DNA of 63,915 nucleotides, filler included, from Octopus bimaculoides (GCF_001194135.2; 8 parts of 7 records of this genome joined end to end with filler, not necessarily neighbours in it), one strand, 5' to 3'. Positions 214 to 62,729 are shown, counted from the first letter of the whole stretch. Program-made: numbers and translations. The notes: generated by a model from the letters alone, not told the origin.

Positions 214-253
214 GGCGACTCGAGTTTCAGGGCTATTTCCCTTCGTCATGGCC
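214..253 (-). ncRNA. Minimal type I hammerhead ribozyme-like motif (one-nt core insertion)
   Basis: The minus strand reads GGC-C(A)UGACGA-AGGG[AAAUAG]CCCU-GAAA-CUCGAG-UC|GCC. It has a 3-bp stem I, a 4-bp stem II, a palindromic ACUCGAGU helix III and a GUC site. Confidence 0.55.
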
Positions 254-373
254 GGTATGACAGACTTTAATATATATCTCCTGCAATTAAATATAGATGA
301 GTAGGCATACACCTTTGTGTATGCCTATATATATATACATATATATAAATATATGCATATACATTCATATATT

Positions 374-414
<41 letters not shown>

Positions 415-424
415 NNNNNNNNNN

Positions 425-470
<46 letters not shown>

Positions 471-670
471 CAGACATATTATTTTCAACTGTACAAGACG
501 GTTTCTATCTGAATCGCAAACAGCTGCTGCTGAAACAATCTTTTTTAAATTCTAATTGACAGAATCAGAATTAGCTATTGTTTACTTATTAGATTTTTAT
601 TCTGAAGAAATATAGGGCACTAATGAATGGCGTATGTTGAAATATTGTGTGTATATTCCTATCAATATAT

Positions 671-762
<92 letters not shown>

Positions 763-1038
763 GTAAGTATGTATACATACATACATATATATACATACAT
801 ACATACTTACCGGCATACATGCATATACGTACGTGCACACAAATATGCATGTGCATTTATTTATTTGTATATGTTTCAAACTCACCTAAACCTCACACAG
901 ACACATAAACACACACGCACGCCCACATTGATATATACTCCTTTACTGATAAAATACATTTCCTGACAATGAAATGCATTCCAATTCCTAAATTCTATAG
1001 ATTTTATTGACAGAATTTAATGTTTTTCTAATATAGTC

Positions 1039-1435
1039 GCAGACGTGGCTGTGTGGTAAGAAGTTTGCTTCCGAACCACATGGTTTCTGGTTCAGTCCCA
1101 CTGTGTGTATTTTGGGGCAAGTGTCTTTTAGAATAGCCTCGGACCGACGAAAGCCTTGTGATTGGATCTGGTAGACGGAAACTGGAAAAAACGCGTCGTA
1201 TATATGTATATGTATATATATCTATTTATGTATGTCTGTGTTTGTCCGCCCCTCTACGGCTTGACAACCGGTGTTGGTGTGTTTATGTCTCGGTAACTTA
1301 GAGGTTTGGAAAAAATATCGATAGAATAAGTACCAGGCTTAAGAAATATTACTGGGGTTGATATATTCAACTATAAATTCTTGAAGATGGTGCCCCAGCA
1401 TGGCCGCAGTCTAATGACTGAAACACGTAAAAGAT
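1039..1435 (+). mobile_element. tRNA-derived SINE family A, full length
   Basis: A-box-like TGGCTGTGTGG and B-box-like GGTTCAGTCCC head, internal TA/TG microsatellite, 3' end ...CAGCATGGCCGCAGTCTAATGACTGAAAC..GTAAAAGA. More than 10 homologous copies or fragments occur in the window. Confidence 0.8.
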
Positions 1436-1797
1436 CTGCTTGGAAACTGATGAACGACTTTGTCCAGGCACCACTGATAATGCGAAGTAGTGGAACGAGA
1501 AGCATCAACAAACGTTTTCTTACGGTATTCGCGCATATAGTCGTTCAATGGCTACCCATGAATTATCAACCGTTGCCGGTTTTATACAGTAAATATAGTC
1601 CATTGTTGTGAGGTCCGTTGAACGCCGAGGGTAGCCTACTCAGTCGCTTCGTCTTGTTTGCATTTTATGGTAACCCCTTGCATTACTATAATAGTGCGAC
1701 AGTTGTTTCATCTTGCTGGAAATTAAAACTTATCTTCAAAGTCCTCTTGCATGTTTGGCATGACATTATCGCATCAAGAACGACTGGATCGCAAATT

Positions 1798-1843
<46 letters not shown>

Positions 1844-2135
1844 TCAAGCACACACAGCGCTCATACACATATATATTTATAAACTTTAAAATATATCTCC
1901 TTCAATTAAATATAGGCATACACCTACATGAAGGTCAGGTAAATGGGATTAGGCGGGTCTAGGTAATCCGTCCTATGATACTTTAACTAACGTGATGTTT
2001 TGCGGATTCTCGGATCCTCAGTAACCGTAACCGTAGTGGTTAATTGAGCTATTTAATTTAAATGGCTTAATCACTATGATTGACTGCTAACTCCACAAGT
2101 TTTTTTTTAATTCCCTCTCTGATTATTTCATCGTG

Positions 2136-2176
2136 GTCCTTCCTGTTGAAGAGCATAGGCTCGAAACGTAAAAGAC
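2136..2176 (+). ncRNA. Hammerhead-like motif, family 1 (CUGUUGA core), degenerate stem I
   Basis: GUCCUUC-CUGUUGA-A-GAGC[AUAG]GCUC-GAAA-CG-UA|AAAGAC. The tail to about 2270 is homologous to 52575-52705. Confidence 0.5.
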
Positions 2177-2269
2177 TTTCTCGCCTTCCCGAGCGTCAAA
2201 CTAATACGCCCGCTTGTTGTTCATACACCTGTCTTCGTCTTTTCTTTTTCTGTAAATTTCAACTAATAT

Positions 2270-2740
2270 AAATGCAGTCTCATCGCTCCAAAAATGCTTG
2301 TTTGAAAGGTATACATCTTCTACATATCTTGCAAAACGTCAATTTTCGGTTTGGATCATCTGCTTTGAGAGCATGGATTATTCTTGGAATGTATCTTCTC
2401 CAATGACAGCTTCAAAATGAGATGGACGCTTGATTTTGAAATTCCTATTCACGAGTTGTTTGCCGTTCGGATTTTCTTGAACGTCTAAACTGCTATTTCT
2501 TGCTTGGTGGAGCACATTGATGTCCTTGATGCTACGAAACATTTATTGCAGTCATTCTGAACAGTTCCTACTGATTCAATGCGATGATTCATTCTGGTGA
2601 TTGGAATCTCGCGTTTATTGAATCACTTTGAATCTCGTTACTAAATTCTCTTTGCACTTCGACAGTATTTTAAAACTCCCAGTAGTTATTTTGGCCACAT
2701 TGTCTTTGTTTAAAGTCTAGTCTAACCTTTTGCATTCTTT
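2270..2740 (-). pseudogene. Degraded Tc1/mariner-superfamily (maT/DD37D-like) transposase, N-terminal half
   Basis: Minus-strand fragments across frameshifts: TVEVQREFSNEI, SKSSVHLILK..YIPRIIHALKADDPNRKLTF, IFWSDET (first catalytic Asp). Confidence 0.55.
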
Positions 2741-3126
2741 CTAAGGGGTTAAATCTAAAACGAAATGAAAACTAAGTCCGCTATCAGCTGCTAAAGAGTG
2801 TACACACATTCTCGATACTACAAGCACGCGCGCGCGCACACACGCGCCCATGCACATACACATATACATTCAACGTATTTGGTTGTTGTTAGCTACAATG
2901 CCTCTTATATTAATATTGTCTTCTGTTTCACTTCTCATCTTTTATCATTCTCTTTTTTATATAAAATTACAGAAGCACACAGACACACACAAACACACAC
3001 ACACAAACTTTCTCACGACCCCATCATTCTGCTTAAACAATGGATTTACAAATACAATATCCCTGCATTCACTCTTTATTTCCTATCTTATCTAAATTAA
3101 CTATTGCTTAACCATCCTCTCACACC

Positions 3127-3174
3127 GTCTCCGATGAAGGGATATAATAAATATCCTGGAAACAGCTGTAAGAC
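3127..3174 (+). ncRNA. Minimal type I hammerhead-like motif (U4C variant)
   Basis: GUCU-CCGAUGA-A-GGGAUAU[AAUAA]AUAUCCU-G-GAAA-CAGCUG-UA|AGAC. It has a 4-bp stem I, a 7-bp stem II and a palindromic ACAGCUGU helix III. Confidence 0.55.
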
Positions 3175-3474
3175 CTATTTACAAATGTTCTATATTATAC
3201 AGAGCCTTGATTTTTTTATCTCATTANNNNNNNNNNNNNNNNNNNNNNNNNNNNNNNNNNNNNNNNNNNNNNNNNNNNNNNNNNNNNNNNNNNNNNATTT
3301 ATTATATAAAGGGACTTTTATAAAATATTACTTGTTTTGATGTGTATGTCGTCTTATCAAATATTTAGAATTGAAATTCAGAATTATTGGATGAGAATTA
3401 ATTGGAAATTAAAAACAGTTTTGTTTTCATATTTTGTACATAGTTAAGAACGAGTGTGTGTGCGTCTGCATGTA

Positions 3475-3550
<76 letters not shown>

Positions 3551-5062: not shown

Positions 5063-5114
<52 letters not shown>

Positions 5115-5141: not shown

Positions 5142-5290
5142 GTACATATTTATGAAACTTTTACAAGAGGGGTGACAGTGACACCGTAGTTTCGGTCTGG
5201 TAGCCTTCGTCAGGCATTCTGACGAAAACTAGCAAGCAGACACTCTAAGTTGCTGTTACCCCTCTTGAAACAAGTTTAATAAACATGTAC
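5142..5290. mobile_element. Head-to-head pair of degenerate hammerhead-bearing (Penelope-like) termini
   Basis: TTCGTCAG-gcatt-CTGACGAA at 5206-5226. The arms are homologous out to CTGT(C/T)ACCCCTCTTG...AAGTTT(C/A)ATAAA(T/C)ATGTAC. Confidence 0.55.
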
Positions 5291-5342
5291 TTTAGTAAAA
5301 GGTATTGTCTATTCCTTCAGTTGTCTTTACAAAACAATGATC

Positions 5343-6390: not shown

Positions 6391-6748
6391 AAGAGAGAGA
6401 GAGGGCGATTTGATTGCTATTTCTAACATGTTCAGCCTCTCTTATTTGCCCTTATTTTAAAACCCTGCCACCCACACGCAAGCACGCGAATGTTTACAAG
6501 CGGTCTTCAAATTTTTCTAACCAAAGGGATTCTTAGCTCAATATTTACACATTATTATAGCTTTGTCTACTTTGAGCTCCGCCATAAAAAAAAAATCGAA
6601 TTATATACGTTTATATTGAAGATAATGTGAAGTATTTATTTAAAAATTCTATTTTGGAAATGTATGATTGTTTAAAAATTTTTGTATTTTAATTTAGGCT
6701 GAATGGTGAAAATAATGAACTGGTTACCACAAGTAAAAGTTCGACTTC

Positions 6749-7888
6749 ATGAGAAATGAAGAATTAAAGGCGAGAATGATTCCGTCAGAAAATCTTACCA
6801 ACATTATCACTACGAAGAGTTATAATGCTTACGAACAGTTCTATTTGGAAGCGCGTTCCATCACCGGTCTCGTATGTTACCCAATCGCCTGCTCAATCGG
6901 CCTTATAGGAAACACAATGAGCATTATTGTGATGACCCAAAAGCAAATGCAGTCCTCGACAAATATCTACCTCTTGGCTTTGGCCTTTTCTGATAGCATA
7001 AAACTCATCAACGACTTTCTCTATTTCGTTGTGATATTACTGATGGAGATTGACAAACGAACTGGAGAGTCTTTATATCAAGGTTTATATCCTTACGCCC
7101 ACTATATTTTCAATACGTCGTTATGCATATCGGCGTGGATCACCGTATCTGTAGCAGTGGAACGATACGTTTACGTATGTAAACCTCTCTATGTGAAATC
7201 TTACTGCACTATTCACCGCGCCCGCATTATAACTGTATGCGTTTACTTCTTTATGAGTATGCTATCCATACCATATGCAATGAGATACCAGTCTTATGAA
7301 GTGTACGATAATAGAACAAATCAGACTTTATTGGATTTGTCAGTTACGAAACTCTGGCAAAACAATGTTTTCTCAAGGGCTTATACTTGGTTTCAAAACC
7401 TTATTCGTTCAGTAATTCCGCTTTTAACTTTAATAGTATTAAATACTTGTATAATGTGTGGTATTAGGCGTTGTAAACTAAGCAAATCCAAGAATATGAG
7501 ACGATACCGCATTACCATTATGTTGGTCTGTGTTGTCTTGGTATTCATGGTTTGTATATCGCCTGATGCCATCATGTCCACCATCCTTGGTTTTGGCTAT
7601 ATCGAAGAAGATTATTTAACTCGTGGCATTCGCGAGATAACCGATCTATTACTTCTTATTAACTCAGCGGTGAATTTTATACTCTATTGCATATTCAACA
7701 CAATATTTTGGAAGAACTTCTTACATATTTTCTGCGCTATTTGTATAAAAATCTACTGCCCTCACCACCAGATGAACGTTTCCACACCGTCAAGACAACT
7801 GCAAAGCAATGTGTACAGAGAAGTTCAACTAGCTACATTTCCAGGAACACATCATTTTAAATTGGTGTCTGTCAAACGAGGTATGTAG
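6749..7888 (+). CDS. Class A (rhodopsin-like) GPCR, FMRFamide/peptide-receptor-like group, 379 aa, single coding exon
   Basis: Seven hydrophobic segments with TM1 GN, TM2 LAFSD, TM3 ERY, TM4 P, TM5 P, TM6 FMVCISP and TM7 NSAVNFILY. N-glycosylation sequons NLT (N-terminus) and NRT/NQT (ECL2). The ORF is uninterrupted. Confidence 0.93.
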   Translation: MRNEELKARMIPSENLTNIITTKSYNAYEQFYLEARSITGLVCYPIACSIGLIGNTMSIIVMTQKQMQSSTNIYLLALAFSDSIKLINDFLYFVVILLMEIDKRTGESLYQGLYPYAHYIFNTSLCISAWITVSVAVERYVYVCKPLYVKSYCTIHRARIITVCVYFFMSMLSIPYAMRYQSYEVYDNRTNQTLLDLSVTKLWQNNVFSRAYTWFQNLIRSVIPLLTLIVLNTCIMCGIRRCKLSKSKNMRRYRITIMLVCVVLVFMVCISPDAIMSTILGFGYIEEDYLTRGIREITDLLLLINSAVNFILYCIFNTIFWKNFLHIFCAICIKIYCPHHQMNVSTPSRQLQSNVYREVQLATFPGTHHFKLVSVKRGM

Positions 7889-33689: not shown

Positions 33690-33730
<41 letters not shown>

Positions 33731-33916
33731 ATATGTTTGTGTGTCTGTGTTTGTCCCCCCACCATCGCTTGACAACCGATGCTGGTGTGTTTATGTCCCC
33801 GTAACTTAGCGGTTCGGCAAAAGAGACCGATAGAATAAGTCCTGGGGTCGATTTGCTCGACTAAAGGCGGTGCTCCAGCATGGCCGCAGTCAAATGACTG
33901 AAACAAGTAAAAGAGT
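33532..33916 (+). mobile_element. SINE family A, intact, in a CTR9 intron
   Basis: Complete head, microsatellite core and GTAAAAGAGT tail. Confidence 0.88.
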
Positions 33917-34028
33917 AAGTACAATGACTCCAGCTTGGCCTGTCCTGTTCTGACTTTGTGTTTGTTGTGAGAACGGAGCAAGGGGGGATCTTGATTTTTT
34001 TTCTAACGTTTCCATTGATATATTTCAG

Positions 34029-34118
34029 CAACACCTCCGCAAGGTCACTGAACAGTTCCCGGAGGATGTTGAGGCCTGGATTGAATTAGCTCAGATTCTG
34101 GAACAAACTGATGTCTTG
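34029..34118 (+). CDS. CTR9: CTR9 internal exon C (90 nt, phase 0/0)
   Basis: [30 protein letters not shown]; tttcag and gtaagt flanks. Confidence 0.95.
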
Positions 34119-34144
34119 GTAAGTAAAGTATCGGAAGAGGAGGA

Positions 34145-34410
34145 GGAGGAGGAGGAAACTTGTGCTGTGTGGTTGTAGGTGGGAGGAGTTATGTTTTAGA
34201 GGAGGAGTTGTGATTGAATCTTGTGTTGCAGGAAGAGGAGAATTGTGAGGGAACCTTGTGCTGAGTGATGTGTTGCTGGGAGGAGATGTGATGGAACCTT
34301 GTGTTGGAGGAAGAGGAGTGATGTGTTGGAGGGAGAGGAGACTTGTGAGAGAACCTTGTGCTGTATGACTGTTGAGGAAGGAAGCATGAGGTGACATCTT
34401 GTGCTGATGT
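34145..34410 (+). repeat. Degenerate G/A-rich minisatellite (about 6 units, core TGA.GGAACCTTGTG(C/T)TG)
   Basis: The core recurs near 34152, 34210, 34245, 34288, 34345 and 34388. Confidence 0.65.
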
Positions 34411-34769
34411 GTGTGTGTGTGTATGTACACAAGATGAGTGCAGGTAGTATGTTAGTGGTGAGGGGTGGGGGCATGGTGATACATTGTTATATGGTGAGTG
34501 GAGTGGGGAGTGAGGAGAGTACATTGAAGAGAACAGAAAGAGATGAGTTGGGGAGAAGAGTGGGAACATGATGACATCGTGCAAGCCTGTGTATGTAGTG
34601 AATTGAGTGTATGAAGGTGCTTTGTTAGGCTGCAAGGGTGACTACACAATGTTGAATTCTGTGTGCATTGAGGAACCTGTATGATTACTGTTGCTGTTTA
34701 GCCTTAAATTATCCCTGATCAAACGGACTTATGATTAAAGGCATTCCAGTTATGACCATCTCGTCTTTT

Positions 34770-35112
34770 TCCTTTGTGCAGGAAACCCAGTAGGTGGCAT
34801 TAGGAAGGGCATCCAGCTGTAGCAACCATGCCGATGCAGACAGTAGAGCTTGGTGCAGTCTTCTGGCTTGCCAGCTCCTGTCAGACCATCCAACCCATGC
34901 TAGCATGGAAAAACAATCATTAAATGGCAGTAACAATAATGGTTTGAGAGACACTGTCATCATCATCATCATCATTTAGTGTCCGTTTTCCATGCTGGCA
35001 TGGGTTTGACTGGTTTGGTTGGGACTGGTAACCCAAAGAGCTGTACCAGCCTCCAGTATGGTTTGTCTTGGTTTCTACAGCTGGATGCCCTTCCTGATGC
35101 CAACCATGCCAA
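34770..35112. mobile_element. Two convergent family C fragments (34770-34915 +, 34960-35112 -)
   Basis: AGGAAGGGCATCCAGCTGTAG on + followed by its reverse complement CTACAGCTGGATGCCCTTCC. Confidence 0.7.
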
Positions 35113-35221
35113 GACCTTTTTTTCCAATTTGCTATTTCTAATAGATGAAGAAGCTCCCTTGTTATCCCATAGGAAATTGATTCCCTTTAGATGTAGAATT
35201 TTATGCTTTTCTTATTTACAG

Positions 35222-35350
35222 GGTGCCCTTTCGGCGTATGGCACTGCCACCAGAATTCTGAAAGATAAAGTTCAAGCTGATGTGCCACCCGAGATTCTTA
35301 ACAATGTGGCTGCCTTACATTTTAGAATTGGCAATTTCATGGAATCCAAG
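35222..35350 (+). CDS. CTR9: CTR9 internal exon D (129 nt, phase 0/0)
   Basis: [43 protein letters not shown]; ttacag and gtttgt flanks. Confidence 0.95.
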
Positions 35351-36129
35351 GTTTGTATTTTATGTAATTTTCCGTCTCATTTGCTATGATAAGCACTGTG
35401 ACAGCACCAATGATTTCTTGTTATTTTGTAAATTCACATTAAGTAAGGTGTACACAATGCTATTTTGAACTAACACTACTTCCATCACTAATAATGAACT
35501 TTTTACCAAGCCTGACAGCTATTTGTGAATCAATGTTTCTGTTAATCACTGTTTTTCTATATCGTTAGAGGCTAAATTTGTCTAAGCATACGGTTGCTAA
35601 GTCGATACATGCTGATGATGATGCACAAAGACGCAGAAATCCAGATTCAACAATTCCACTGCCACTGCTAGATGCTTTCCATCTACTGCTGAAAAATCAC
35701 TTGTGTTTTTTAGCACTATACACCTATAAGAGGTGGTGTCTCAAGACAAATATTGCAGTTTTGTGGCTTTCTACAATGTATCCACATTGAGTAATATATA
35801 CAGAATGCTTGGGGGCGGGGTGTATTTGACTTCATACATTTTGTAAACAATAACTGTGTTGGTTATAGATTTCTTAGTTGAGCAGGAATAGCAACCGGTT
35901 AACTGCATTTACAGTGACAAGGGAATGTCTGCAACTCACGTGGAAGAATTAACACATGGTATTTTTATGCAGTCCACTCGTTTATTGGTATTTTTGTCTC
36001 ACCAGTGTAGATTTTTCACTAGTGGTGCCCCAGCATGGCCACAGACTAATGACTGACACAAATAAGATATACACACACAAATGCACACATCTTTGTGTGT
36101 ATGTGTATGTATATGTTGGTCTTCTACAC

Positions 36130-36414
36130 CAGGGGTTTTCAAACTTTTTGACTTGCGGACCCCTTTATATTTCAGGCTTTACCTTATAAACGCTTATGAA
36201 ATTTACACATAAATATTTGCTTAAAATAACATATATTTTTACATTTATTTATTTAACAGTATTTAACAAAATAGGTTTATTGTCAATTAAAAGATTTCAA
36301 TTAAAAACATATATAGAATCAAATTGCCCATAAAAAGTATTTGCTGTCCACGGACCCCCTGTCTTGTCCTTGCAGACCCCCTATGGTCCGCGGACCACCG
36401 TTTGAAAACCCCTG
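36130..36414. mobile_element. hAT-superfamily MITE (285 bp) nested in a SINE A fragment
   Basis: Perfect 15-bp TIR CAGGGGTTTTCAAAC (36130-36144 / 36400-36414). 8-bp flanks TTCTACAC / GTCTACAC match at 7 of 8 positions. Confidence 0.88.
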
Positions 36415-36694
36415 GTCTACACAGTTACCGTCTACCAAAATCTACTTCTAAGCTTATAGTAGAAGTCATTTATCTAAGATGCTGCAGAGAACCACTTGAA
36501 TGGAAAATGAACTTAAACCACACATCCATATCTGTACCTGGATTCATTTACCCAAGGTGCCATGCAGTGGGATTGAACACAAAGTAACATTGAGTCCCCC
36601 CTTAAAAAAAAGCACATGCACACACACACACACACACATTCCAAAACGTGCCGTTTATGTAGTTTAGTGTTGCTGATCGTTGATGTCTTTTCAG

Positions 36695-36878
36695 AAATAT
36701 TATGAAGCTTCACTTGAACGCTCCCGACACGAAGCACAGCACGATGAGACATACTACAGCGCCATCTCAGTAACCACAACCTACAACTTGGCGCGACTCT
36801 ACGAAGCAACCCACGAGTACGATAAAGCAGAGAAACTGTACAAGAATATTCTGAGAGAGCATCCTAACTATGTCGATT
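36695..36878 (+). CDS. CTR9: CTR9 internal exon E (184 nt, phase 0/1)
   Basis: [61 protein letters not shown](C); tttcag and gtaagc flanks. Confidence 0.95.
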
Positions 36879-37392
36879 GTAAGCTATATTTCTCTTCACC
36901 TCTCACACAATTNNNNNNNNNNNNNNNNNNNNNNNNNNNNNNNNNNNNNNNNNNNNNNNNNNNNNNNNNNNNNNNNNNNNNNNNNNNNNNNNNNNNNNNN
37001 NNNNNNNNNNNNNNNNNNNNNNNNNNNNNNNNNNNNNNNNNNNNNNNNNNNNNNNNNNNNNNNNNNNNNNNNNNNNNNNNNNNNNNNNNNNNNNNNNNNN
37101 NNNNNNNNNNNNNNNNNNNNNNNNNNNNNNNNNNNNNNNNNNNNNNNNNNNNNNNNNNNNNNNNNNNNNNNNNNNNNNNNNNNNNNNNNNNNNNNNNNNN
37201 NNNNNNNNNNNNNNNNNNNNNNNNNNNNNNNNNNNNNNNNNNNNNNNNNNNNNNNNNNNNNNNNNNNNNNNNNNNNNNNNNNNNNNNNNNNNNNNNNNNN
37301 NNNNNNNNNNNNNNNNNNNNNNNNNNNNNNNNNNNNNNNNNNNNNNNNNNNNNNNNNNNNNNNNNNNNNNNNNNNNNNNNNNNNNNNNNNNN

Positions 37393-37560
37393 ATATACGA
37401 CGGGCTTCTTTCAGTTTCCGTCTACCAAATCCACTCACAAGGCTTTGGTCGGCCAGAGACTATAGTAGAAGACACTCGCCCAAGGTGCCACGCAGTGGGA
37501 CTGAACCCGGAACTATGTGGTTGGTAAGCAAGCTACTTACCACACAGCCACTCATGCGCC
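37393..37560 (-). mobile_element. SINE family A, 5' half (the rest is in the gap)
   Basis: Reverse-complement head; the internal microsatellite runs into Ns. Confidence 0.8.
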
Positions 37561-37960
37561 CTGAGTGAATTGAAATTTTTTTTTTCTTTGTTACAAATGC
37601 ATAAACGATAAGCAGGGAGAAATAACTCGCTAAAATATGAATTCGTCTGAGAATATATTTATCAAATTAAATTTTATTTAATCTTTGTGTGCGCACAGGG
37701 TATGCCTTTATTTTTTCATTTTTTTTTTTTTATTTCCTTCATTTTTATTTTTCTCTGTTTTATTTCTCTTTTTTTTTCCTGGTTTCTTTTTAATTCTTTC
37801 ATCATTTCTTTCTCACTTTTTTCTCGTGTCTCTCTATTTCTTCCATCATCACTTTTCTAACTTTTTCCCTCTCCTTCCGTTTCCTCTCTCTTTACTCTTC
37901 CTTCCTTTTTTGTCCCTCTTTATCCCCGTCTTGAATAAAGCACCCTACTTTATTCTTCAG

Positions 37961-38049
37961 GTTACCTGAGATTAGGTTGCATGGCACGAGATCGGGGACA
38001 AATCTATGAAGCATCTGATTGGTTCAAAGAAGCCCTACAGATAAACCAG
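37961..38049 (+). CDS. CTR9: CTR9 internal exon F (89 nt, phase 1/0)
   Basis: (C)[29 protein letters not shown]; cttcag and gtgagg flanks. Confidence 0.95.
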
Positions 38050-38125
38050 GTGAGGTCATTGAAATTCATTCTATCAATTTGCTGTTCTTTGAGAATTAAA
38101 AGTGATGATGAAAGAAATAGAGTAT

Positions 38126-38160
<35 letters not shown>

Positions 38161-38684
38161 TTAGGCTTATGAAACACGTGTAGTCGTTTTTTTATCATTA
38201 TCTTATGATATTTACTTTGTTTTATAGTATACTTATTTATTGTGCTTTTTAATTATTAATTTTACTATATGTGACAGTGGATTTTCATCGATGAGTTCAT
38301 GAACCTTGGTTCTTTTCCCTAAAACTATATATATATATATATACTGTTGTGTTTGGGCGGTGAGTGTTACATTTTAAGGCACAATAAGAAAATGACCCTC
38401 CCCAGACACAACAGAATATGCTTCAACATACGAAATCACATAAAAAAACTTGCAAACCAAATCCAAAAACGAAATATATATATATATATAATTATGTATG
38501 TGTGTGCATAGATGTTGTTTTTACGTGTTCTCATTAGCACTGCTAATGTATGTATATATTTATATATGTGTGTATATTATAGTTATTTAACGGACAATAA
38601 AATGATTGTTTCAAACATTCACTAGGCATTATATATATTTTTTTTTTTTTTTGTACATTTTGGTAAATTTCTATTTTTATGTAG

Positions 38685-38870
38685 GATCATCCAGATGCCT
38701 GGTCTTTAATTGGAAACCTTCATTTAGCCAAACAAGAGTGGGGCCCTGGGCAGAAGAAGTTTGAACGAATTATCCAGAGACCTAACACCAAAGATGACTC
38801 TTATTCGCTTATTGCTCTTGGCAATGTCTGGCTACAAACTCTTCATCAGCCAATCAGAGACAAAGACAAG
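38685..38870 (+). CDS. CTR9: CTR9 internal exon G (186 nt, phase 0/0)
   Basis: [62 protein letters not shown]; AG and gtaaga flanks. Confidence 0.95.
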
Positions 38871-38915
38871 GTAAGAGCTTTATATCCAATTGATTCATTA
38901 CCATGTCACTTATAG

Positions 38916-39255
38916 ACGAGGGGTGTTGAAAAGTTCCTGGCTTTAATTGTATTGTAAAAGTCCTGGCTGGAGGCCCAACCTTTCAGAGATCTTTTACAGG
39001 GCTTAGAAAAACTGAAGGACTGCTGCAATGAGTGTGTGANNNNNNNNNNNNNNNNNNNNNNNNNNNNNNNNNNNNNNNNNNNNNNNNNNNNNNNNNNNNN
39101 NNNNNNNNNNNNNNNNNNNNNNNNNNNNNNNNNNNNNNNNNNNNNNNNNNNNNNNNNNNNNNNNNNNNNNNNNNNNNNNNNNNNNNNNNNNNNNNNTAGA
39201 AAAATTGAAGGACTGCTGCAATGAGTGTGTGAATCTGACAGGAGAATATGTTAGG
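38916..39255 (+). mobile_element. Internally deleted mariner remnant
   Basis: Mariner-type terminus ACGAGGGGTGTTGAAAAGTTCC followed by a C-terminus-like GLEKLKDCCNECVNLTGEYV, interrupted by a gap with duplicated flanks. Confidence 0.5.
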
Positions 39256-39448
39256 TTGTTGAGGTGAGAGACTCATCAGGGACAAATTGTGTGCAGGTAA
39301 GTTAACGAGAGAAGAGAAAGAAGAGCGGAAAACAAAAGGGAGAGGAATGCAGTGAATGTGAACCCAGGTGGAGGGATAGAGGGTGTTAGGAAGAAATGTT
39401 TATTTTTTGTACCTAAAAAATGAAACCAAATTATTTTGATAATTGCAG

Positions 39449-39536
39449 GAAAAACGACACCAAGACCGAGCTTTGGCTATGTACAAACAGGTACTAAGAA
39501 ATGATGCACGCAATATTTGGGCTTCAAATGGAATTG
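39449..39536 (+). CDS. CTR9: CTR9 internal exon H (88 nt, phase 0/1)
   Basis: [29 protein letters not shown](G); ttgcag and gtaagt flanks. Confidence 0.95.
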
Positions 39537-39914
39537 GTAAGTTGTTGTCATTGTTAAGTAGCGCTGTTTAGCTTTGTTTTAAAATTATGGCTGTCATCAT
39601 CATCATCGTCATCATTGTTTAACGTCCACTTTCCATGCTAGCATGGGTTGGCCGATTTGACTGAGGACTGGTGAACCAGATGGCTAGTTAATTCAAGACA
39701 ATGTGAATAAATAAGCATTACATTTGACAGAGTAATCTGAATGCTAAAGGGTTAAATATCTGTAATTTTAATTTTATCTGTTAGGATTAGGATTAAACAT
39801 GCAGGTTAACATAATACATCCACCATATTTCTCTCCAGCCTCTGAAGATCTTCAGAATTAAACAGAGTGTATTTCACTTTGCAGTCTACTTTTCATTTTG
39901 ATTTCCATATTCTC

Positions 39915-40270
39915 ATCATCATCATCATCATCATCATCGCCGTTTAATATCCGCTTTCCATGCTAGCATGGGTTGGACGATTTGACTGAGGACTGGTGAA
40001 ACCAGATGGCTACACCAGGCTCCAATCTGATTTGGCAGAGTTTCTACAGCTGGATGCCCTTCCTAATGCCAACCACTCAGAGAGTGTAGTGGGTGCTTTT
40101 ACGTGCCACCAGCACGAGGGCCAGTCAGGCGGTACTGGTAACTGCCACGCTCAAAATGGTGTATTTTATGTGCCACCCACACAAAAGCCAGTCCAGGGGC
40201 ACTGGCGACGATCTCGCTCGAAAGTCCTTACACATGCCGCGGGCACAAGTGCCAGAAAGGCGTCACTGGG
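39915..40270 (-). mobile_element. SINE-like family C in a CTR9 intron
   Basis: Near-identical to the 31040-31480 and 40783-40980 copies. Confidence 0.8.
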
Positions 40271-40373
40271 TACATGCCATGTTGTCTGTTATTTATTTTA
40301 GCCTTGTCAATGTTCAACTGTGTTGTTGTTGTTTTTGATGTCAGTAAAAGTAGATAATTTTTGTTGTTGCCAG

Positions 40374-40522
40374 GTTGTGTTCTTGCCCACAAAGGCTGCA
40401 TCAACGAAGCCAGAGATATATTTGCTCAAGTCCGTGAGGCGACTGCTGATTTCTGTGATGTCTGGCTTAATATTGCCCACATTTATGTGGAACAGAAACA
40501 GTATGTAGCTGCAGTACAAATG
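40374..40522 (+). CDS. CTR9: CTR9 internal exon I (149 nt, phase 1/0)
   Basis: (G)[49 protein letters not shown]; tgccag and gtcagt flanks. Confidence 0.95.
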
Positions 40523-49174: not shown

Positions 49175-50231
49175 CTGCATATATATATATATATCATCAT
49201 AATCATCATCATCATCGTTTAACGTCTGCTTTCCATGTTAGCATGGGTTGGACGATTTGACTGAGGACTGGTGAAACCGGATGGCAACACCAGGCTCCAA
49301 TCTGATTTGGCAATATATATATATATATACATACATANNNNNNNNNNNNNNNNNNNNNNNNNNNNNNNNNNNNNNNNNNNNNNNNNNNNNNNNNNNNNNN
49401 NNNNNNNNNNNNNNNNNNNNNNNNNNNNNNNNNNNNNNNNNNNNNNNNNNNNNNNNNNNNNNNNNNNNNNNNNNNNNNNNNNNNNNNNNNNNNNNNNNNN
49501 NNNNNNNNNNNNNNNNNNNNNNNNNNNNNNNNNNNNNNNNNNNNNNNNNNNNNNNNNNNNNNNNNNNNNNNNNNTAAGATATAAAGAAATTCACAATTAA
49601 ACATAACAAATATATTCCCATGATCGGCTGCCACACGGTTATCACTTTTGTTTCGACACATATTTATGTATATTTATTTACATGTGTATGTGCGTGTACA
49701 TTCATTTGATTTAGCTATTTTGGTCCTTGCTGCTTCGTGTAATTATACTGAACGCGCGCACAGACAGACAGACAGACAAACAGAAAAACAGACAGACAGT
49801 CAGACAGACAGACAGGCACACACACACACACACACACATACTGAAACGCACACAATAAACACAATACATGTTTTTATGTGCTACTTATAGCTTCATATAT
49901 CGAGAAATAGCTCAAACATATTCATCAGGCACAAATCACATATCAAAAAGAACGAAGAAATAAAATGAGGGAATAGTAGCGCATAAAAACATGTCTGTTA
50001 AATAATATTTATCTCTCACCAGATGGAGGACTTTGCTGTTGATCTCACCAACACGAAACAGTACATTACGCGCGCGGGCGCGCACACACGTAAGCACGCA
50101 CGCAGGCACACACACACATACACACGCATACACACAGACACACACACACACACACACGCACACACACACACATGTATGTATGTATATATGTATGTCATTG
50201 TCCAGTTTTATTTCAAGATTTCTTGCGAATA

Positions 50232-52075
50232 GAGAAAGAGCCGGTTTCTAACCTAGATTCAAAGTTCCTTCATTGGAATTTCAACATCAACAACAGGATA
50301 TTTTTGCTTGCATGTATGTATGTATATGTGCAGATTTGTATGTTTTGTTTATGCATGTATTCTCGTGCATATAGCTGCATGTCTAGACATGCTCATATAT
50401 ACTGAAATGATAAACTTCTGGAAAGTTTTAATGACTTTTACATTTCCGGTGATGGATTGGATCTGTAGTCTTCGAATTAGCTTTTTCCTTTCTGGCTTTG
50501 AGAAGCCTAATTTCTCAAGATCGGTNNNNNNNNNNNNNNNNNNNNNNNNNNNNNNNNNNNNNNNNNNNNNNNNNNNNNNNNNNNNNNNNNNNNNNNNNNN
50601 NNNNNNNNNNNNNNNNNNNNNNNNNNNNNNNNNNNNNNNNNNNNNNNNNNNNNNNNNNNNNNNNNNNNNNNNNNNNNNNNNNNNNNNNNNNNNNNNNNNN
50701 NNNNNNNNNNNNNNNNNNNNNNNNNNNNNNNNNNNNNNNNNNNNNNNNNNNNNNNNNNNNNNNNNNNNNNNNNNNNNNNNNNNNNNNNNNNNNNNNNNNN
50801 NNNNNNNNNNNNNNNNNNNNNNNNNNNNNNNNNNNNNNNNNNNNNNNNNNNNNNNNNNNNNNNNNNNNNNNNNNNNNNNNNNNNNNNNNNNNNNNNNNNN
50901 NNNNNNNNNNNNNNNNNNNNNNNNNNNNNNNNNNNNNNNNNNNNNNNNNNNNNNNNNNNNNNNNNNNNNNNNNNNNNNNNNNNNNNNNNNNNNNNNNNNN
51001 NNNNNNNNNNNNNNNNNNNNNNNNNNNNNNNNNNNNNNNNNNNNNNNNNNNNNNNNNNNNNNNNNNNNNNNNNNNNNNNNNNNNNNNNNNNNNNNNNNNN
51101 NNNNNNNNNNNNNNNNNNNNNNNNNNNNNNNNNNNNNNNNNNNNNNNNNNNNNNNNNNNNNNNNNNNNNNNNNNNNNNNNNNNNNNNNNNNNNNNNNNNN
51201 NNNNNNNNNNNNNNNNNNNNNNNNNNNNNNNNNNNNNNNNNNNNNNNNNNNNNNNNNNNNNNNNNNNNNNNNNNNNNNNNNNNNNNNNNNNNNNNNNNNN
51301 NNNNNNNNNNNNNNNNNNNNNNNNNNNNNNNNNNNNNNNNNNNNNNNNNNNGGTCTTCTCTGAGGTAAGAGAGCCCAGCTGTTTTGGTGCTGTATAGGAA
51401 ATCATCAGAAAGAGAGTGTTTCTTGAGGAGTTCACTGCCAACTCGTACAATGTTGCTCACTTCACTTTTCAGGACTGCATTGATATATTTATTATTGCTT
51501 CTGTTGTTTAGCAGGTGCTGCCTGAGTGATACTATACGGTATTCGAAGGCCGTCTTCTCTGATCTCAGGCCTCTACCACCTTCGTTTCTTCATAAGTAGA
51601 GCCTGACAACATCACTGTTTCTGTGGATCTTCCCAGTTGTTGTCAGAATTTTATGGGTTTTTATATCTATGGAGTGGATTTCCTCTACAGACCAGTCAAG
51701 TATCCCAAACGTTGGGTTCAACCCTGGTACTGTAATTGCATTGTGGGATATTGTTTTGTTGTAAGGGGAGAGTTCCGACTGCTAAATTTCCCTGAGTCTG
51801 GTGTAATATTCTCGGGTCACTCTATTTAATCACAGTGCCTTCATATGATACATGTTTGTCTATGCCTAGGTACTTGTAACATTCTTTGTGAGGAATGGAG
51901 GAGACAGAAAGACCCTTGATGCACAGGTATTGGGTTTGAGGGACTGACTTTCCTCGTTCTATAACCAAGTATGAAATTTTCTTTTGGCCAAATTCCATGC
52001 CTATATTAGCTGAAAATGTTATTAATTCCAGTTGTTTTTTTGGTATTGTTAACACTTTTAGCATAAATCTTCAGG
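50232..52075 (-). pseudogene. R4/Dong-like RLE non-LTR retrotransposon fossil spanning an internal gap
   Basis: LELITFSANIGMEFG..YKYLGID, RVTREYYTRLREI..SELSPYNK..HNAITVP..FGILDW..GGRGL (RT thumb region). After the gap: LEKLGFSKPERKKLIRRLQIQSITGNVKVIKTF. It shares the 3'UTR motif GTTAGAAACC(G/A)GCTC(T/C)TTCTC (50232-50252) with the copy at 28900-28920. Confidence 0.8.
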
Positions 52076-52474: not shown

Positions 52475-52574
52475 NNNNNNNNNNNNNNNNNNNNNNNNNN
52501 NNNNNNNNNNNNNNNNNNTTAATTAATTAANNNNNNNNNNNNNNNNNNNNNNNNNNNNNNNNNNNNNNNNNNNN
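52475..52574. other. Artificial scaffold spacer
   Basis: 44 N + TTAATTAATTAA (52519-52530) + 44 N. Confidence 0.95.
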
Positions 52575-52576
52575 AT

Positions 52577-52613
52577 TCTTTCTGTTGAAGAGCGTAGCTC
52601 GAAACGTCAAAGA
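52577..52613 (+). ncRNA. Minimal type I hammerhead-like motif, family 1 (CUGUUGA core)
   Basis: UCUUU-CUGUUGA-A-GAGC[GUA]GCUC-GAAA-CG-UC|AAAGA. It has a perfect 5-bp stem I, a 4-bp stem II, a palindromic ACGU helix III and a GUC site. Confidence 0.6.
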
Positions 52614-52703
52614 CTTTCCGTATTCCCGAGCGTCATACTAATATATACTTTTGTTATTTACACCACCTGTGCTCGTCTGTTGTTATTATTTGTATATTCT
52701 CCC

Positions 52704-52744
<41 letters not shown>

Positions 52745-56431: not shown

Positions 56432-56669
56432 AATATCTCAATGACGGCATGTTCTCTGCTTGGAAACTACAATGTGTCTGAAATGAAGAAAAGAACAAAG
56501 AAAAGTTAATTCTATATTTAAGAGATGAGGAATTATTTACATTTGATGGATATTTGTCCTCATCTTGTTTGTTGTTAACACAACTTTTCGGCTGATATAC
56601 CCTCCAGCCTTCTTCAAGTGTCTTGGGGAAATTTCGAACCTGGCTTTTCATTCTGAAGGTATTTTTCGA

Positions 56670-56958: not shown

Positions 56959-57058
56959 NNNNNNNNNNNNNNNNNNNNNNNNNNNNNNNNNNNNNNNNNN
57001 NNTTAATTAATTAANNNNNNNNNNNNNNNNNNNNNNNNNNNNNNNNNNNNNNNNNNNN
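56959..57058. other. Artificial scaffold spacer
   Basis: 44 N + TTAATTAATTAA (57003-57014) + 44 N. Confidence 0.95.
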
Positions 57059-59080: not shown

Positions 59081-59521
59081 CGTTATAATTAAATGTCTGT
59101 GTTTTTCTATTTCGTATTGTTACTTAATTAAGTCTACATTTTTCTCTAATTTTATAATGTTAACTTAATTAAAATGAAACTATTGTATTATGTTTATGTA
59201 ATGAGGAACAATAGCCAGACAAAGTCAATAGAAACCAATTGACAAATGCTTTGACCAGAAATATGATATAACTGAATCTAAAGATTCAAACGACTAGACA
59301 CGCTATTACGGGTAAGTAATTAGCGCATTTACTAATTATACAATTTAGCCAATTTATAAATTGTTAAATAATTAATTCATAATGAATTAAAACATATATA
59401 AAAAGATTTTAGTTTCGAAGCTATTGAAGCAATATTTTTTGTTTTTTTAACAAACTGGTTAAAGTTAACCCGAGGATTTTTGAGTTGGAGTAAAGCTTCA
59501 GTAATATTAGAGGTAGAGTAT

Positions 59522-60172
59522 AAGGTAGCGAGCTGGCAGAATCGTTAAGCAGGCCGGATAAAATGCTTAGCGGCATTTTGTCTGACTTCACGTACTGAGT
59601 TCTAATTCTGCGAGGTCGAATTTGCCTTTCGCCCTTTCAGGGTCGATAAATTAAGTTTCAGTTGAGTACTAGGATCGATGGAATCAACTTGCTCCCTCAC
59701 CCGAAATAGTTAGCCCCGAGCTAAAATTTCAAATTAATATTAGGGTAGAGTATAAGGTGGTGAGCTGGCGGAAACGTTAACCCCGCCGGGCAAATTGCTT
59801 AGCGGTGTTTCGTCCGTCTTCACGTTCAAATTCCACCGTGGTTGATTTCGATTCTCATCATTTCGGCGTCGATATGATAAGCACCAGTTGAATACTACGG
59901 TCGATATAACTGACTTAACGCCTCTCCTGAAATTACTGGCTTTGTGCCATAATTTGAAACCAATGTTAGAACAGGGTATAAGGCTGCAAGCTGGCAGAAT
60001 CATTACCACATCGGGCAAAAATGCTTAGCGGAATTTCGTCCGTCTTAACATTCTGAGTTCAAATTCCACCTAGGGTCAATTTTGCCTTTCGTCATGTCGA
60101 TATTCGATAAAATAGGTACCAATTGATCACTTGAATCGATGTAATTACCCCGAAATTACTGGCTTTGTGCCA
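59522..60172 (+). mobile_element. Tandem array of three SINE B units (starts 59522, 59754, 59980)
   Basis: Period about 230 bp. Each head is preceded by an AAT(A/G)TTAG..GTAT spacer. Confidence 0.8.
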
Positions 60173-60622
60173 ATAAGAGGAGAAGGGTCAAAGTTTGAAA
60201 TCGTTTGTTAGGGTTAGCATCAGTTAAAGTATGGACTACTTTAGTTTTAGTGTACCCTAGTCAGATGTGACCCTGATGATGCTTTATAAATTTCTATTTC
60301 ATATTATATGTACCTAGCACTGTTAGTATACATATTATATGTACTTCGCGCATGTTGATATACATGGATATTATTGGTATATTTGTAGACAACTCAGTTA
60401 TGTATAAATATCAAAAATAAAACTCATTTCAACGACGAGGATAACTTCGATCAACTCGTCTCTATGTTATTGATCCATCTCGCTTCCACTGCGCCACTCG
60501 GTTGGACGATTGATTAAGCAAATATATAATGTATTTTTTCCGATATTGTTTGTTCTGGATTACGTTATTTCTATTACATCATCCACCATTTGCTAGTCAT
60601 TATTATTATTATTATAATACAT

Positions 60623-61298
60623 AAGGCGCCGAAGTCGGCGAGCTGGCAGAAACGTTAGCACGCCGGGCGAAATGCTTAGCGGTATTTCGTCTGTCTTTAC
60701 GTTCTGAGTTCAAATTCGGCTGAGGTCGACTTTGTCTTTCGTCCTTTCGGGGTTGATAAATTAAGTACCAGTTGCGTACAGGTGTCGATCTAATCGACTG
60801 GACCTCTCCCCATCAATCTCGGGCCTTGTGCCTAGAGTAGAAGGGAATATATAAGGCGGTGAGCGGGCAGAATCGTTAGCACGCCGGGCGAAATGCTTTG
60901 CGGTATTTCATCTGTCGTCACGTTCTGAGTTCAAATCCCACTGAGGTTGACTTTACCTTTTATCTTTTCGGGGTCGATAAATTAATTACTAGCTGCTTAT
61001 TGGTGTCGATCAAATCAACTGGCCCCCTCCCCGCAAATTTCGGGCCTTGTGCCTAGAGTAGAAAAGAAATATTAAAGCGGCGAGCTGACAGAATCGTTAG
61101 CACGCTGAACAAAATGTTTAGCGGCATTTCGGAGGTCTTTACGCTCTGACTTCAAATTTCGCCGAGATCAACTTTACTTTTCATCCTTTCCGGGTCGATA
61201 AATCAAGTACCAGTGAATCATTGTGGTCGACGTAATCGACTAGTACCCTCCCCTAAATTTTCCGGCCTTGTGCCTTTAATAGAAAGGATTAGTATTAT
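60623..61298 (+). mobile_element. Head-to-tail array of three SINE B copies (starts 60623, 60853, 61074)
   Basis: Each tail ...AGTAGAA..GAA(A)TAT(A/T) is directly followed by the next AA(G/A)GCGG head. Confidence 0.85.
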
Positions 61299-61607
61299 AA
61301 AATATCTACTTGTATGCATTGAAGTCTGTCGAATGTACGAAATATAGTAACTACACAGTATATGCTGCAGCAATAGGATGTTAATTTATTTACGGAAAGA
61401 CGACATTTCACTCTGTCGATACATTGAGAGTCACATTTCGCAAATCACATGCGTTGTTAATTTTTCTAGTGTCTCTTCATTCGCCATTTTCAGATTAGCC
61501 AGAGGCAAATGAATTCTATAATTGTTTCTTCAACTCAACAAAGCAAATGAGCTGGAATTCCTTTGAATAATATATATACATATATATACATATATATACA
61601 CACACAC

Positions 61608-61641
<34 letters not shown>

Positions 61642-61739
61642 ATACATACATATATATATATAAACACAGACACACACATATATATATATACATATCCGCA
61701 TAATTGAATATATTTACATATACTTTTGAGAATAATTCT

Positions 61740-61930
61740 TTCTACTACAGGCACAAGCTCTGAAATTTGGGAAGGAGGGGATTAGTCGATAAGATCGACC
61801 CCCCCCCCCTCAGTCCACAACTGGTATTTATTATATCGAACCCCACAAAGGATAAAAGGCAAAGTCCACTTCGACAGAATTTAAAATCAGACATTAAAGA
61901 TGTTTTTCTTTTTTCCGGTGTTCTAACGGT
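61740..61930 (-). mobile_element. SINE family B, old copy
   Basis: Reverse-complement family B tail and body. Confidence 0.65.
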
Positions 61931-62060
61931 TCTGATAAGTACAAGAATAACGAAGACTACCTTAACCACGTGACCTCAGATGTCTCATATCACAAAACAT
62001 CCTGCAAAACAATGGCACATGCCACATGCATAACATCAGACCGATATATATATATATATA

Positions 62061-62160
62061 NNNNNNNNNNNNNNNNNNNNNNNNNNNNNNNNNNNNNNNN
62101 NNNNTTAATTAATTAANNNNNNNNNNNNNNNNNNNNNNNNNNNNNNNNNNNNNNNNNNNN
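62061..62160. other. Artificial scaffold spacer
   Basis: 44 N + TTAATTAATTAA (62105-62116) + 44 N. Confidence 0.95.
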
Positions 62161-62520
62161 CCTTATGTAGCATTGGTATGTTTTGGGTGATGATGGTGAA
62201 GGCTTCTTTGTTTCTGGGGTTGTATGTGGATATGTACGGCAGTATTTTTGGGGAATGTGTGTTGCTGTGTTTAACTTTTCTTAAGTTTTCTATGTCAATG
62301 TGTGATGCACGTCTGATTCCATCCTCTATGAGTTGAACTGGGTAGTGTCTGTCAATTAGTGTGTTTTTTAGTTCTTGTAGTCTATAGTCTCTAGTATTTT
62401 GTTCTGACACTATTGTGCATATCCTTCTTGCAAGGTTGAAGGGGATGTTTGTCTTGGTGTGTCTTGGGTGGCATGAATCAAATATATATTGTTTAAAGAA
62501 GGTTGTTATGCAAGGCTGGA
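62161..62520 (-). mobile_element. Penelope-like element, RT thumb region with an open frame
   Basis: KQYIFDSCHPRHTKTNIPFNLARRICTIVSEQNTRDYRLQELKNTLIDRHYPVQLIEDGIRRA...LPYISTYNP, the PLE S.HP..K..IP...A.R...I.S pattern, running into the spacer. Confidence 0.8.
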
Positions 62521-62729
62521 ACAATGCGAAAAGGTACAAAATAATCTATAAAAGGAAAAGAAAAGGAAATAAAGTTGCAGTTTTACCTTGTATTTCTATA
62601 TTTTGGGGTGAAGATCACTTTTTCAGGACATTTGGTAAAAGCGGTAGTTGGAGAAAGTTGTTGTTTAGATGTCTGCGGGGGAAGGAGATTGGAGAGGAAG
62701 GAGAAAGGTGCTGTGCAGATTGGTGTTGC

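Follow-up and report, generated by a model that had tools for sequence, protein, structure and literature searches.

Minimal hammerhead ribozymes (min-HHRs) have been described in the pseudo-LTRs (pLTRs) of metazoan Penelope-like elements (PLEs), and the published alignment includes the molluscs Lottia and Crassostrea (Cervera and De la Pena, 2014; PMC4209133). Octopus is not found in the part of that paper's supplement that was searched. We analyzed a stretch of 63,915 nucleotides from Octopus bimaculoides, hereafter the window, whose hammerhead motifs share with the published class the type I order, an extra base after A9, a short stem I and a palindromic helix III. As in the material we consulted from that study, the motifs also form several unrelated families, occur mostly as single dispersed copies, and include an opposite-strand pair. 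Their density in the window is apparently higher than that of the approximately 4,000 motifs of coelacanth and 9,000 of Xenopus, which were counted with a stricter descriptor. Two of the core variants described below, U6 and C4, are absent from the published alignment rows we saw, in which the variant is U3-A8.

Three other systems are close. Small hammerhead variants with a diminished stem III (Lunse, Weinberg and Breaker, RNA Biol 14:1499; via PMC6765202) have PLE association and dimer-dependent cleavage in common with the min-HHRs; our comparison with this set is by description only, which limits any claim of novelty. The Neptune and Nematis PLEs, which carry an endonuclease (EN+), share a cysteine linker, plus GIY-YIG as the C-terminal domain, with the reverse transcriptase (RT) relatives of the window, and inverted 5'-truncated copies, pLTR inversion, one-sided tails and (TA)n targets have been reported for PLEs (Craig et al., 2021; PMC8557442). 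In contrast, the window holds PLE protein fragments only, without the linker, and these do not distinguish Neptune from Nematis. Finally, non-LTR retrozymes, short non-coding repeats that are presumably mobilised by PLEs, also contain a hammerhead of type I (Cervera and de la Pena, 2020, PMC7229834; Li et al., 2026, bioRxiv). Retrozymes, however, are described as tandem repeats of 150-450 bp with mostly canonical motifs and abundant circles, whereas the window copies are solo, minimal and without evidence of circles. Among cephalopods, PLEs make up 6.83% of the O. vulgaris genome according to a published supplement (PMC13282606), and 235 loci of Rfam hammerhead 1 are given for the giant squid (PMC6962438). 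None of the papers listed in our literature searches describes hammerheads of octopus.

Hammerhead motifs in the window

A structural descriptor and a model of PLE-linked motifs identified seven hammerhead motifs in the 57.9 kb of called bases. An earlier note on this DNA had listed six, all of which are present where it placed them and keep the order of elements it gave. The type I order is common to all seven motifs, and helix III or loop 3 is palindromic in each of the six listed ones (ACUCGAGU, ACGU three times, ACAGCUGU, ACACGUGU), as had been claimed. Two motifs (22099 and 24803) have the fully canonical core CUGANGA, and one of these (22099) also has a nucleotide other than G at position 17; 22099 alone combines an intact CUGANGA, GAAA, a palindrome and non-G17. 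The extra nucleotide between A9 and position 10.1 is A in five motifs and U in 22099, and the A at this position in 214 could alternatively pair with U. A G10.1-C11.1 pair is present in four motifs (2136, 24803, 52577, 56577); 214, 3127 and 22099 carry an additional base on each side instead, as do three PLE-linked motifs of other organisms (loci L002, L009 and L081).

The best-kept stub (21985-22182, minus strand) consists of a hammerhead at 22097-22182 and a 115-nt tail running into (TA)n. Its motif has an intact CUGAAGA, a 9-bp stem II with U/U at its base, an 8-nt palindrome, A17 at 22104 and a 7-bp stem I. The stub lies directly 3' of a Tc1-like transposase relic; no terminal inverted repeat of that relic was found, and we regard the stub as probably a neighbouring insertion rather than a part of the relic. 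The family A stub (2070-2270, plus strand) has a variable 5' part, a hammerhead at 2137-2176 with the core CUGUUGA (U6), the ACGU palindrome and A17 at 2170, and a pyrimidine-rich tail of about 95 nt. A second family A copy (52577-52704, plus strand), 50 kb from the first and about 80% identical to 2139-2239, has CUGUUGA, C17 at 52608 and a 91-nt tail into (TA)n; its 5' side is interrupted by an N gap. Repeats within the window were compared by masked BLAST, microsatellites being dominant. A relative of family A (24690-24837, minus strand) carries its hammerhead at 24803-24837, with the canonical CUGAUGA and G17, and a tail into (TA)n. The family B stub (3020-3226, plus strand) contains a hammerhead at 3127-3174 with the core CCGAUGA (C4), a stem II whose base has an additional A and G, an 8-nt palindrome and A17 at 3170, and its tail is interrupted by an N gap. 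The motif at 214-253 (minus strand) has an 8-nt palindromic helix III, an extra A between C3 and U4, and C17.

The seventh motif (56577-56622, minus strand; E 8e-10) was absent from the earlier list. It has U3 with G8, a 6-bp stem II and U17, and its helix III, AAGU, is the only non-palindromic one. A possible decayed eighth motif (49877-49933, minus strand) is weak (E 0.73), with a 5-bp stem I, an intact CUGAUGA and a damaged GAAA. The pyrimidine-rich tail leading to (TA)n, previously attributed to several motifs, is seen directly in three of the seven, within 91-148 nt, and in the family of 2136 in other copies. Likewise, the "fused pair" at 5142-5290 does consist of two joined motifs, but they are decayed and inverted head to head; in each, stem I is without its 5' strand, and in one of them GACA replaces GAAA. 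These two hammerhead-plus-tail stubs, to which no common strand applies, occupy 5142-5342 between (TATC)n runs, with about 50 additional bases on the right end only.

Probable solo ends of Penelope-like elements

In other organisms, the same motif lies 83-447 nt 3' of the PLE ORF, on the sense strand, in nine of the 17 loci that reach the ORF end with 3' flank; the other eight lack a clear motif there. Across 98 outside loci, 40 of 46 model matches fall on the ORF strand (13 of the 46 were used to build the model). Among RT relatives, the closest (L002, L009, L081) share with 22099 a stem II flanked by U/U and the longer palindrome, and two of them A17 as well. In two further loci (L033, L038) an inverted motif copy lies upstream of the ORF, in L033 as a head-to-head pair resembling 5142-5290. 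Pattern scans for family A in viral contigs returned 0 and 0 matches.

PLE proteins have left relics in the window itself, all on the minus strand. A C-terminal (thumb) RT fragment at 62162-62497 is 87% identical to the outside protein P0001 and enters an N gap, ending before the position of the linker. A further RT relic of PLE type (62550-63230), which is older, frameshifted and has a YIDD motif, is nearer to distant PLE loci (E 5e-7 and 1e-5), and the C-terminal end of a GIY-YIG endonuclease domain lies at 63762-63914. RT, a cysteine linker C-x4-C-x2-C and GIY-YIG occur together in six RT relatives of Neptune/Nematis type (P0001, P0002, P0004, P0006, P0008, P0016). Pfam gave no RT or GIY-YIG match on eight window fragments; the assignment comes from protein comparisons with PLE relatives. 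The relics claimed to accompany the motifs are thus real, but they occur only at 62162-63914 and no motif adjoins them: the nearest is 5.5 kb away, and no hammerhead was found 3' of the endonuclease end at 63762. Another RT-like relic (51350-52070) matched none of the PLE proteins tried; from its motifs we took it to be presumably Dong/R4, a label that later searches did not confirm.

Both repeat families are abundant. Summed read depth reaches about 41,000 times that of unique flank for family A (2136, 52577) and 14,000 times for family B (3127), sums that, by the method's own warning, are not a copy number. Other copies of family A end at (TA)n and are heterogeneous on their 5' side. Together with the descriptor, the model and the outside loci, these depths bear out the suggestion of a very large population of PLE-type minimal hammerheads (type I) that is made up mainly of solo termini. 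With a probability of roughly 0.8, we regard all seven as minimal hammerheads of type I from several repeat families, most likely PLE 3' ends left as solo 5'-truncated copies and predicted not to cut in place. Against this stands the fact that no window motif is physically joined to a PLE ORF.

By the known PLE cycle, the GIY-YIG endonuclease would nick TA-rich or microsatellite DNA, and the reverse transcriptase would copy element RNA from its 3' end. Because copying would usually halt early, the insert would keep the last 100-250 nt, comprising hammerhead, tail and (TA)n target; the head-to-head pair at 5142-5290 would be a 5'-inverted copy. In an intact tandem parent, the palindromic helix III may let two motifs pair, with slow cleavage as the result, by analogy with what has been published for the class. 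Solo copies would have no such partner, decay neutrally and be transcribed passively inside other RNAs. If U6 is the true majority letter of family A, however, decay of individual copies is insufficient as an explanation.

Core variants and activity

U6 appears to be that majority letter, and the change is predicted to cripple cleavage. Both window copies carry CUGUUGA, and the change 2146 T>A is absent among the 40 of 250 variant rows listed, each of which stands at 50% or more in one or more runs and which include 2142, four bases away (98%). The inference is drawn from an absence among listed rows whose ranking rule is not stated, and the reference used to recruit the reads, at 80% likeness, itself had U6. 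A change at 3132 is likewise absent among these listed rows, and C4 appears to be the majority letter of family B. In the predicted folds of both family A copies, U6 lets UGUU pair with AACG and closes the core, while the natural A6 relative at 24803 is predicted to fold with an open core. The parts consulted of two studies report low activity of CUGA mutants (PMC9901934) and a rate below 0.1 per min for A6C (PMC3088659); our searches found no literature on a U6 core variant of hammerheads, and U6 occurs in one of 39 outside motifs. Family A could be an independently mobile, non-autonomous (SINE-like) PLE derivative of tens of thousands of copies, spread from a U6 master with a ribozyme of little or no activity. 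Neither an autonomous partner nor a master copy came to light, and the relative at 24803 has the canonical A6; we give this proposal somewhat less than an even chance. It refines, rather than excludes, the explanation by solo PLE ends. A wider statement is more tentative still: octopus may hold a hammerhead population that ranks among the densest recorded (of the order of 10^5 motifs if the window is typical), in which family A (of the order of 10^4 copies, and common to a second organism) would have spread from a U6 master that folds shut.

It is improbable that the motifs are monomers of non-LTR retrozymes making circular RNAs by active hammerheads. Retrozymes do occur in a mollusc, the mussel (PMC7229834), and the portion seen of a recent preprint argues that they originated from pLTRs and leave scattered monomers behind (bioRxiv 10.64898/2026.07.22.740005); one DNA contig also contains a 99-base back-joint in family B. 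However, none of the motifs lies in a tandem array within the window, and they are minimal rather than canonical, with mostly variant cores. For families A and B, two cDNA runs (X21, X22; about 6% of each read) yielded no RNA back-joints, in libraries of a kind that loses small circles, and no pile-up of read starts or ends, including at 2170 and 3170. The retrozymes and the self-cleaved or circular RNAs proposed earlier thus gained no support, by a test that is weak for small circles.

Even less probable is an effect of solo copies on gene expression through the cutting of host transcripts, in cis or in trans. Family A and B sequence does occur in RNA reads inside other transcripts, the copy number makes trans-dimers conceivable, and 22099 is canonical, its predicted homodimer forming hammerhead helices. 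The RNA nevertheless looks passive: 94-95% of aligned reads of families A and B continue into unlike sequence, reads at least 99% alike number 7 and 0 in the two runs, and the RNA level is about 3-4% of genome-equivalent. As far as the consulted text of PMC4209133 goes, minimal motifs on their own did not cleave, and dimers did so at a low level only. None of the seven motifs lies among the mapped CTR9 exons (32544-40522), and same-strand neighbours carry different palindromes. Six of the seven depart from the canonical core or site, all seven are solo although a dimer is reported to be required by this fold, and most motifs are predicted to be unable to cut. Given that one motif in seven has both a canonical core and a cleavable site, that none is in tandem, and that neither cut ends nor circle junctions were seen, retrozymes and the cutting of host pre-mRNAs are both unsupported.

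Chance expectation and meaning

The descriptor that allows an extra base after A9, adjusted after the motifs had been seen, matches five of the six motifs listed earlier; without the extra base it matches none. It misses 2136 because a private C at 2142 breaks stem I; T, present at this position in about 98% of aligned reads and contigs, restores the stem. The five matches compare with a mean of 0.06 and a maximum of 2 in 100 block-wise dinucleotide shuffles, so the frequency exceeds that of shuffled sequence. A model built from outside the window (13 of 18 PLE-linked motifs, those of the 4-nt palindrome class) ranks 56577, 24802, 52577 and 2138 first, four matches against a mean of 0.33 and a maximum of 2 in 60 shuffles; it misses the long-palindrome motifs 214, 3127 and 22099. 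We took as chance a match at 598-667 (descriptor without the extra base), a non-palindromic one at 63283-63368 and a weak one at 29215-29247, and dropped weak model matches with E above 0.5 except 49877; of those dropped, the match at 38817-38854 lies antisense to a CTR9 exon. In the whole window, all Rfam families stayed below their gathering scores. The 150 of 282 window matches listed contained microsatellite-driven miRNA matches and no hammerhead, and focused scans of 1900-3226 and 22000-22300 at E<=10 gave no Rfam hammerhead (e.g., RF00163).

The folding of single motifs is not better than that of shuffles, 22099 excepted (z -0.7 to -2.2). In predicted homodimers, the palindrome pairs for 214, 3127 and 22099; for 2136, 24803 and 52577 the predicted minimum free energy structure shows no palindrome pairing. 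Outside PLE-linked motifs have 163 two-sided stem changes against 56 when shuffled, in an alignment fitted to the model, and within the window families one stem-restoring change is visible (2142). The stems do vary between families, as had been pointed out, but what was said to resemble covariation is a published property of the motif class and not a new signal. A mere chance resemblance to hammerheads within low-complexity DNA, as the unexceptional folds, the lack of Rfam hammerheads and the post hoc tuning of the descriptor might suggest, is refuted by the shuffles, none of which reached the observed count, by the independent model, which recovers four motifs, and by the read depth of two repeat families, which peaks at the motif.

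As it stands, the finding is an ordinary one, which adds octopus to a described class of hammerheads and explains a visible share of octopus repeats. The function of hammerheads in EN+ PLEs is called unclear, and the motifs may merely parasitise these elements, in the sections consulted of PMC8557442. If the proposal of a U6 master is true, family A would be natural evidence that cleavage is dispensable for PLE-derived mobilisation, or else U6 would be an active natural core variant, with family B (C4) and the canonical families as built-in controls. A crippled-core family of tens of thousands of copies beside canonical families would then make the function of EN+ PLE hammerheads directly testable.

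Hammerhead motifs of the window

An earlier note placed six minimal hammerhead motifs in the window, and inspection of the sequence finds all six where it put them (starts 214, 2136, 3127, 22099, 24803 and 52577). When stem II had to follow A9 directly, the strict descriptor matched none of the six in the window. A relaxed descriptor, allowing one extra base after A9 and one core mismatch and making a palindromic helix III obligatory, matched five of them, whereas 100 block-wise dinucleotide shuffles gave 0.06 matches on average and never more than 2. Because this descriptor had been tuned with motifs already seen, we turned to a covariance model trained on 13 motifs that adjoin Penelope-like element (PLE) ORFs in other organisms. 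Its top-ranking match in the window was a new motif at 56577-56622 (E 8e-10), followed by 24802-24838 (3e-5), 52577-52613 (1e-4) and 2138-2175 (0.23), with 11 window matches in all up to E 5. The model missed the three long-palindrome motifs of the window (214, 3127 and 22099), a class its training set did not contain. In the proposed check with Rfam, no hammerhead family was among the matches listed for the window. The window is microsatellite-rich animal DNA that includes 6,022 N; its hammerhead feature is real and belongs to an already described kind.

The copies differ in their state. Motif 22099 combines a canonical core and A17 with a 7-bp stem I and a 9-bp stem II. Motif 24803 has a canonical core but G17, motifs 2136 and 52577 carry U at position 6, motif 3127 carries C at position 4, motif 214 has an additional A after C3, and motif 56577 has U3 with G8 and a non-palindromic helix III. 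By core and site, one of the seven motifs is therefore canonical throughout. The supposed fused pair at 5142-5290 forms a 149-nt hairpin (z -9.8) of two homologous stubs lying head to head, both starting at the core and lacking the 5' strand of stem I. It has (TATC)n runs on either side and about 50 additional bases on the right side only. PLE insertions typically comprise inverted 5'-truncated copies and a one-sided tail of 30-40 bp, according to PMC8557442.

Protein comparison located an intact single-exon ORF for an FMRFamide-receptor-like GPCR at 6737-7888 (+). It shares 98% identity with a database entry for the FMRFamide receptor of Octopus vulgaris and 86% with Argonauta, which identifies the host as an octopus. 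Nine exons of CTR9 at 32544-40522 (+) cover positions 347-711 of a homologue with 1,169 residues. Exons for the N- and C-terminal parts did not turn up in the window, for which gaps or scaffold order are perhaps responsible. With regard to the suggested cutting of host pre-mRNAs, no hammerhead motif of the window lies between the mapped CTR9 exons, and none lies inside a tandem array.

Other repeats are also present. Directly 5' of the best-kept hammerhead (22099) is a frameshifted transposase relic at 22300-23300 (-), which its motifs suggest to be Tc1-like and at which no terminal inverted repeat was found. A decayed C-terminal region of a non-LTR reverse transcriptase (RT), presumably resembling Dong/R4, occupies 51350-52070 (-); it matched none of the PLE proteins tried, and further searches confirmed no family. 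One SINE-like family, with a unit of about 220 nt, occurs at 60632-61297, where three copies stand in tandem with a period of 221, and in 19 other intervals; three more dispersed families connect 12, 9 and 8 window intervals. The intervals 264-330 and 1883-1925 have a 33-nt segment in common (94% identical). Next to motif 214 this segment precedes a short, perfect hairpin and (TA)n, and it may be the tail of another element that abuts the motif. Between N runs in several gaps (52496-52575, 56960-57058, 62056-62161), one 12-base AT-only spacer recurs, which is an assembly marker and not biology.

Probable association with Penelope-like elements

A PLE RT fragment at 62162-62494 (-) is 87% identical to the related PLE protein P0001, and its relatives join an RT to a C-x4-C-x2-C linker and a GIY-YIG domain, the same build as in the Neptune and Nematis PLEs described in PMC8557442. 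Neighbouring this fragment are an older PLE RT relic (62550-63230) and a PLE endonuclease end (63762-63914); between these two, 63269-63510 holds two to three copies of an AT-rich unit of 90-150 nt. None of the three PLE protein relics in the window touches a hammerhead motif.

We retrieved 119 PLE loci from other assemblies with an alignment of 21 PLE proteins, and a descriptor scan of these loci showed minimal hammerheads of the palindromic kind in 21. The match reached the ORF end in 18 loci, 17 of which had a 3' flank, and in nine of these 17 a motif lay on the sense strand 83-447 nt downstream of the ORF. In the 98 loci left after removal of near-duplicates from one assembly, the covariance model gave 46 matches, 13 of them its own training motifs, and 40 of the 46 were on the ORF strand. 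The closest relatives (L002, L009 and L081) share with motif 22099 a U/U-flanked stem II and a longer palindrome; more distant loci show the A-plus-GC-stem and ACGU build common to family A, the repeat that contains motifs 2136 (2070-2270) and 52577. Locus L033 carries a head-to-head motif pair upstream of its ORF. Stem covariation is seen across the 39 distinct motifs from outside the window, with 163 two-sided changes versus 56 in shuffled controls, in an alignment fitted to the model. The window motifs fall in the class of PLE minimal hammerheads of Cervera and De la Pena, reported in PMC4209133 as dispersed single copies and opposite-strand pairs; in that study a monomer did not cleave and dimers cleaved at low level.

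Core letters vary among PLE-linked motifs elsewhere: a compensated U3-A8 core occurs in L017:2211-2251, L066:2437-2478, L104:1820-1862 and L035:1864-1906, C4 in L015 and L014, and U6 in L019. Loci L081-L119 come from bacteria-labelled assemblies (e.g. symbiont and marine MAGs) and are most likely contamination by host animal.

Abundance and transcription of families A and B

Four sequence sets were aligned to 1880-3226 at 80% likeness: X5 (DNA-run contigs), X15 (contigs of a second organism, presumed RNA), and the raw RNA runs X21 and X22. Summed depth reached 2.2 million at 2150-2194 in family A and 0.76 million at 3140-3184 in family B (3020-3226, containing motif 3127), about 41,000 and 14,000 times the depth of 53.6 on a unique flank contig; since such sums are not valid as copy numbers, only their order of magnitude was taken. 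Two to three family A copies per 57.9 kb of called bases agree with the high depth. Depth in family A peaks on the hammerhead and runs about 95 nt further, where other copies of the family end in (TA)n. Upstream of stem I, its members split into several unlike sequences. Both families are present in the second organism too. If the window, the one extrapolated here, is typical, seven motifs per 57.9 kb would scale up to some few hundred thousand in 2.3-2.8 Gb. A density of this order would be unsurprising because PLEs cover 191 Mb, or 6.83%, of the O. vulgaris genome in 190 families (PMC13282606), a study whose supplement mentions neither hammerheads nor ribozymes.

Reads aligned to families A and B numbered 2,466 in X21 and 2,308 in X22, with about 6% of each run read. 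Only seven in X21 and none in X22 were at least 99% alike, 94-95% continued into unlike sequence, and mate orientations were about equal. Read starts or ends piled up nowhere in either family in these two runs. As to the circular RNAs proposed earlier, no back-joint was among the RNA joints listed for X21 and X22, from cDNA libraries, which lose small circles. RNA at the family A core was at the level of about 1,400-1,500 genome copies, compared with about 41,000 in DNA. For families A and B, the RNA in these two cDNA runs looks like passive transcription within other RNAs.

Core variants U6 and C4

Both window copies of family A have the core CUGUUGA. The variant table, compiled from reads that the window copy itself had recruited, lists 40 of 250 rows by an unstated ranking, each at 50% or more in at least one run. 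Among these 40 is a variant four bases away from position 6, at 2142 (98%), but they include neither 2146 T>A in family A nor 3132 C>T in family B. The simplest, tentative reading of these 40 of 250 rows is that U6 in family A and C4 in family B are the majority letters.

U4C is tolerated in a viroid hammerhead and A6C gives a rate below 0.1 per min, according to PMC3088659, and C4 is also found in the PLE-linked locus L015. CUGA mutants were low in activity in a full mutational scan (PMC9901934). In predicted folds, a core with U6 closes by pairing with GAAACG, whereas that of the natural A6 relative 24803 stays open. Our literature search, whose coverage did not extend to Lunse et al., found no paper on octopus hammerheads or on a natural U6 core. 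If U6 is indeed the majority letter, family A would have been amplified with a crippled ribozyme, which would bear on the function of hammerheads in PLEs.
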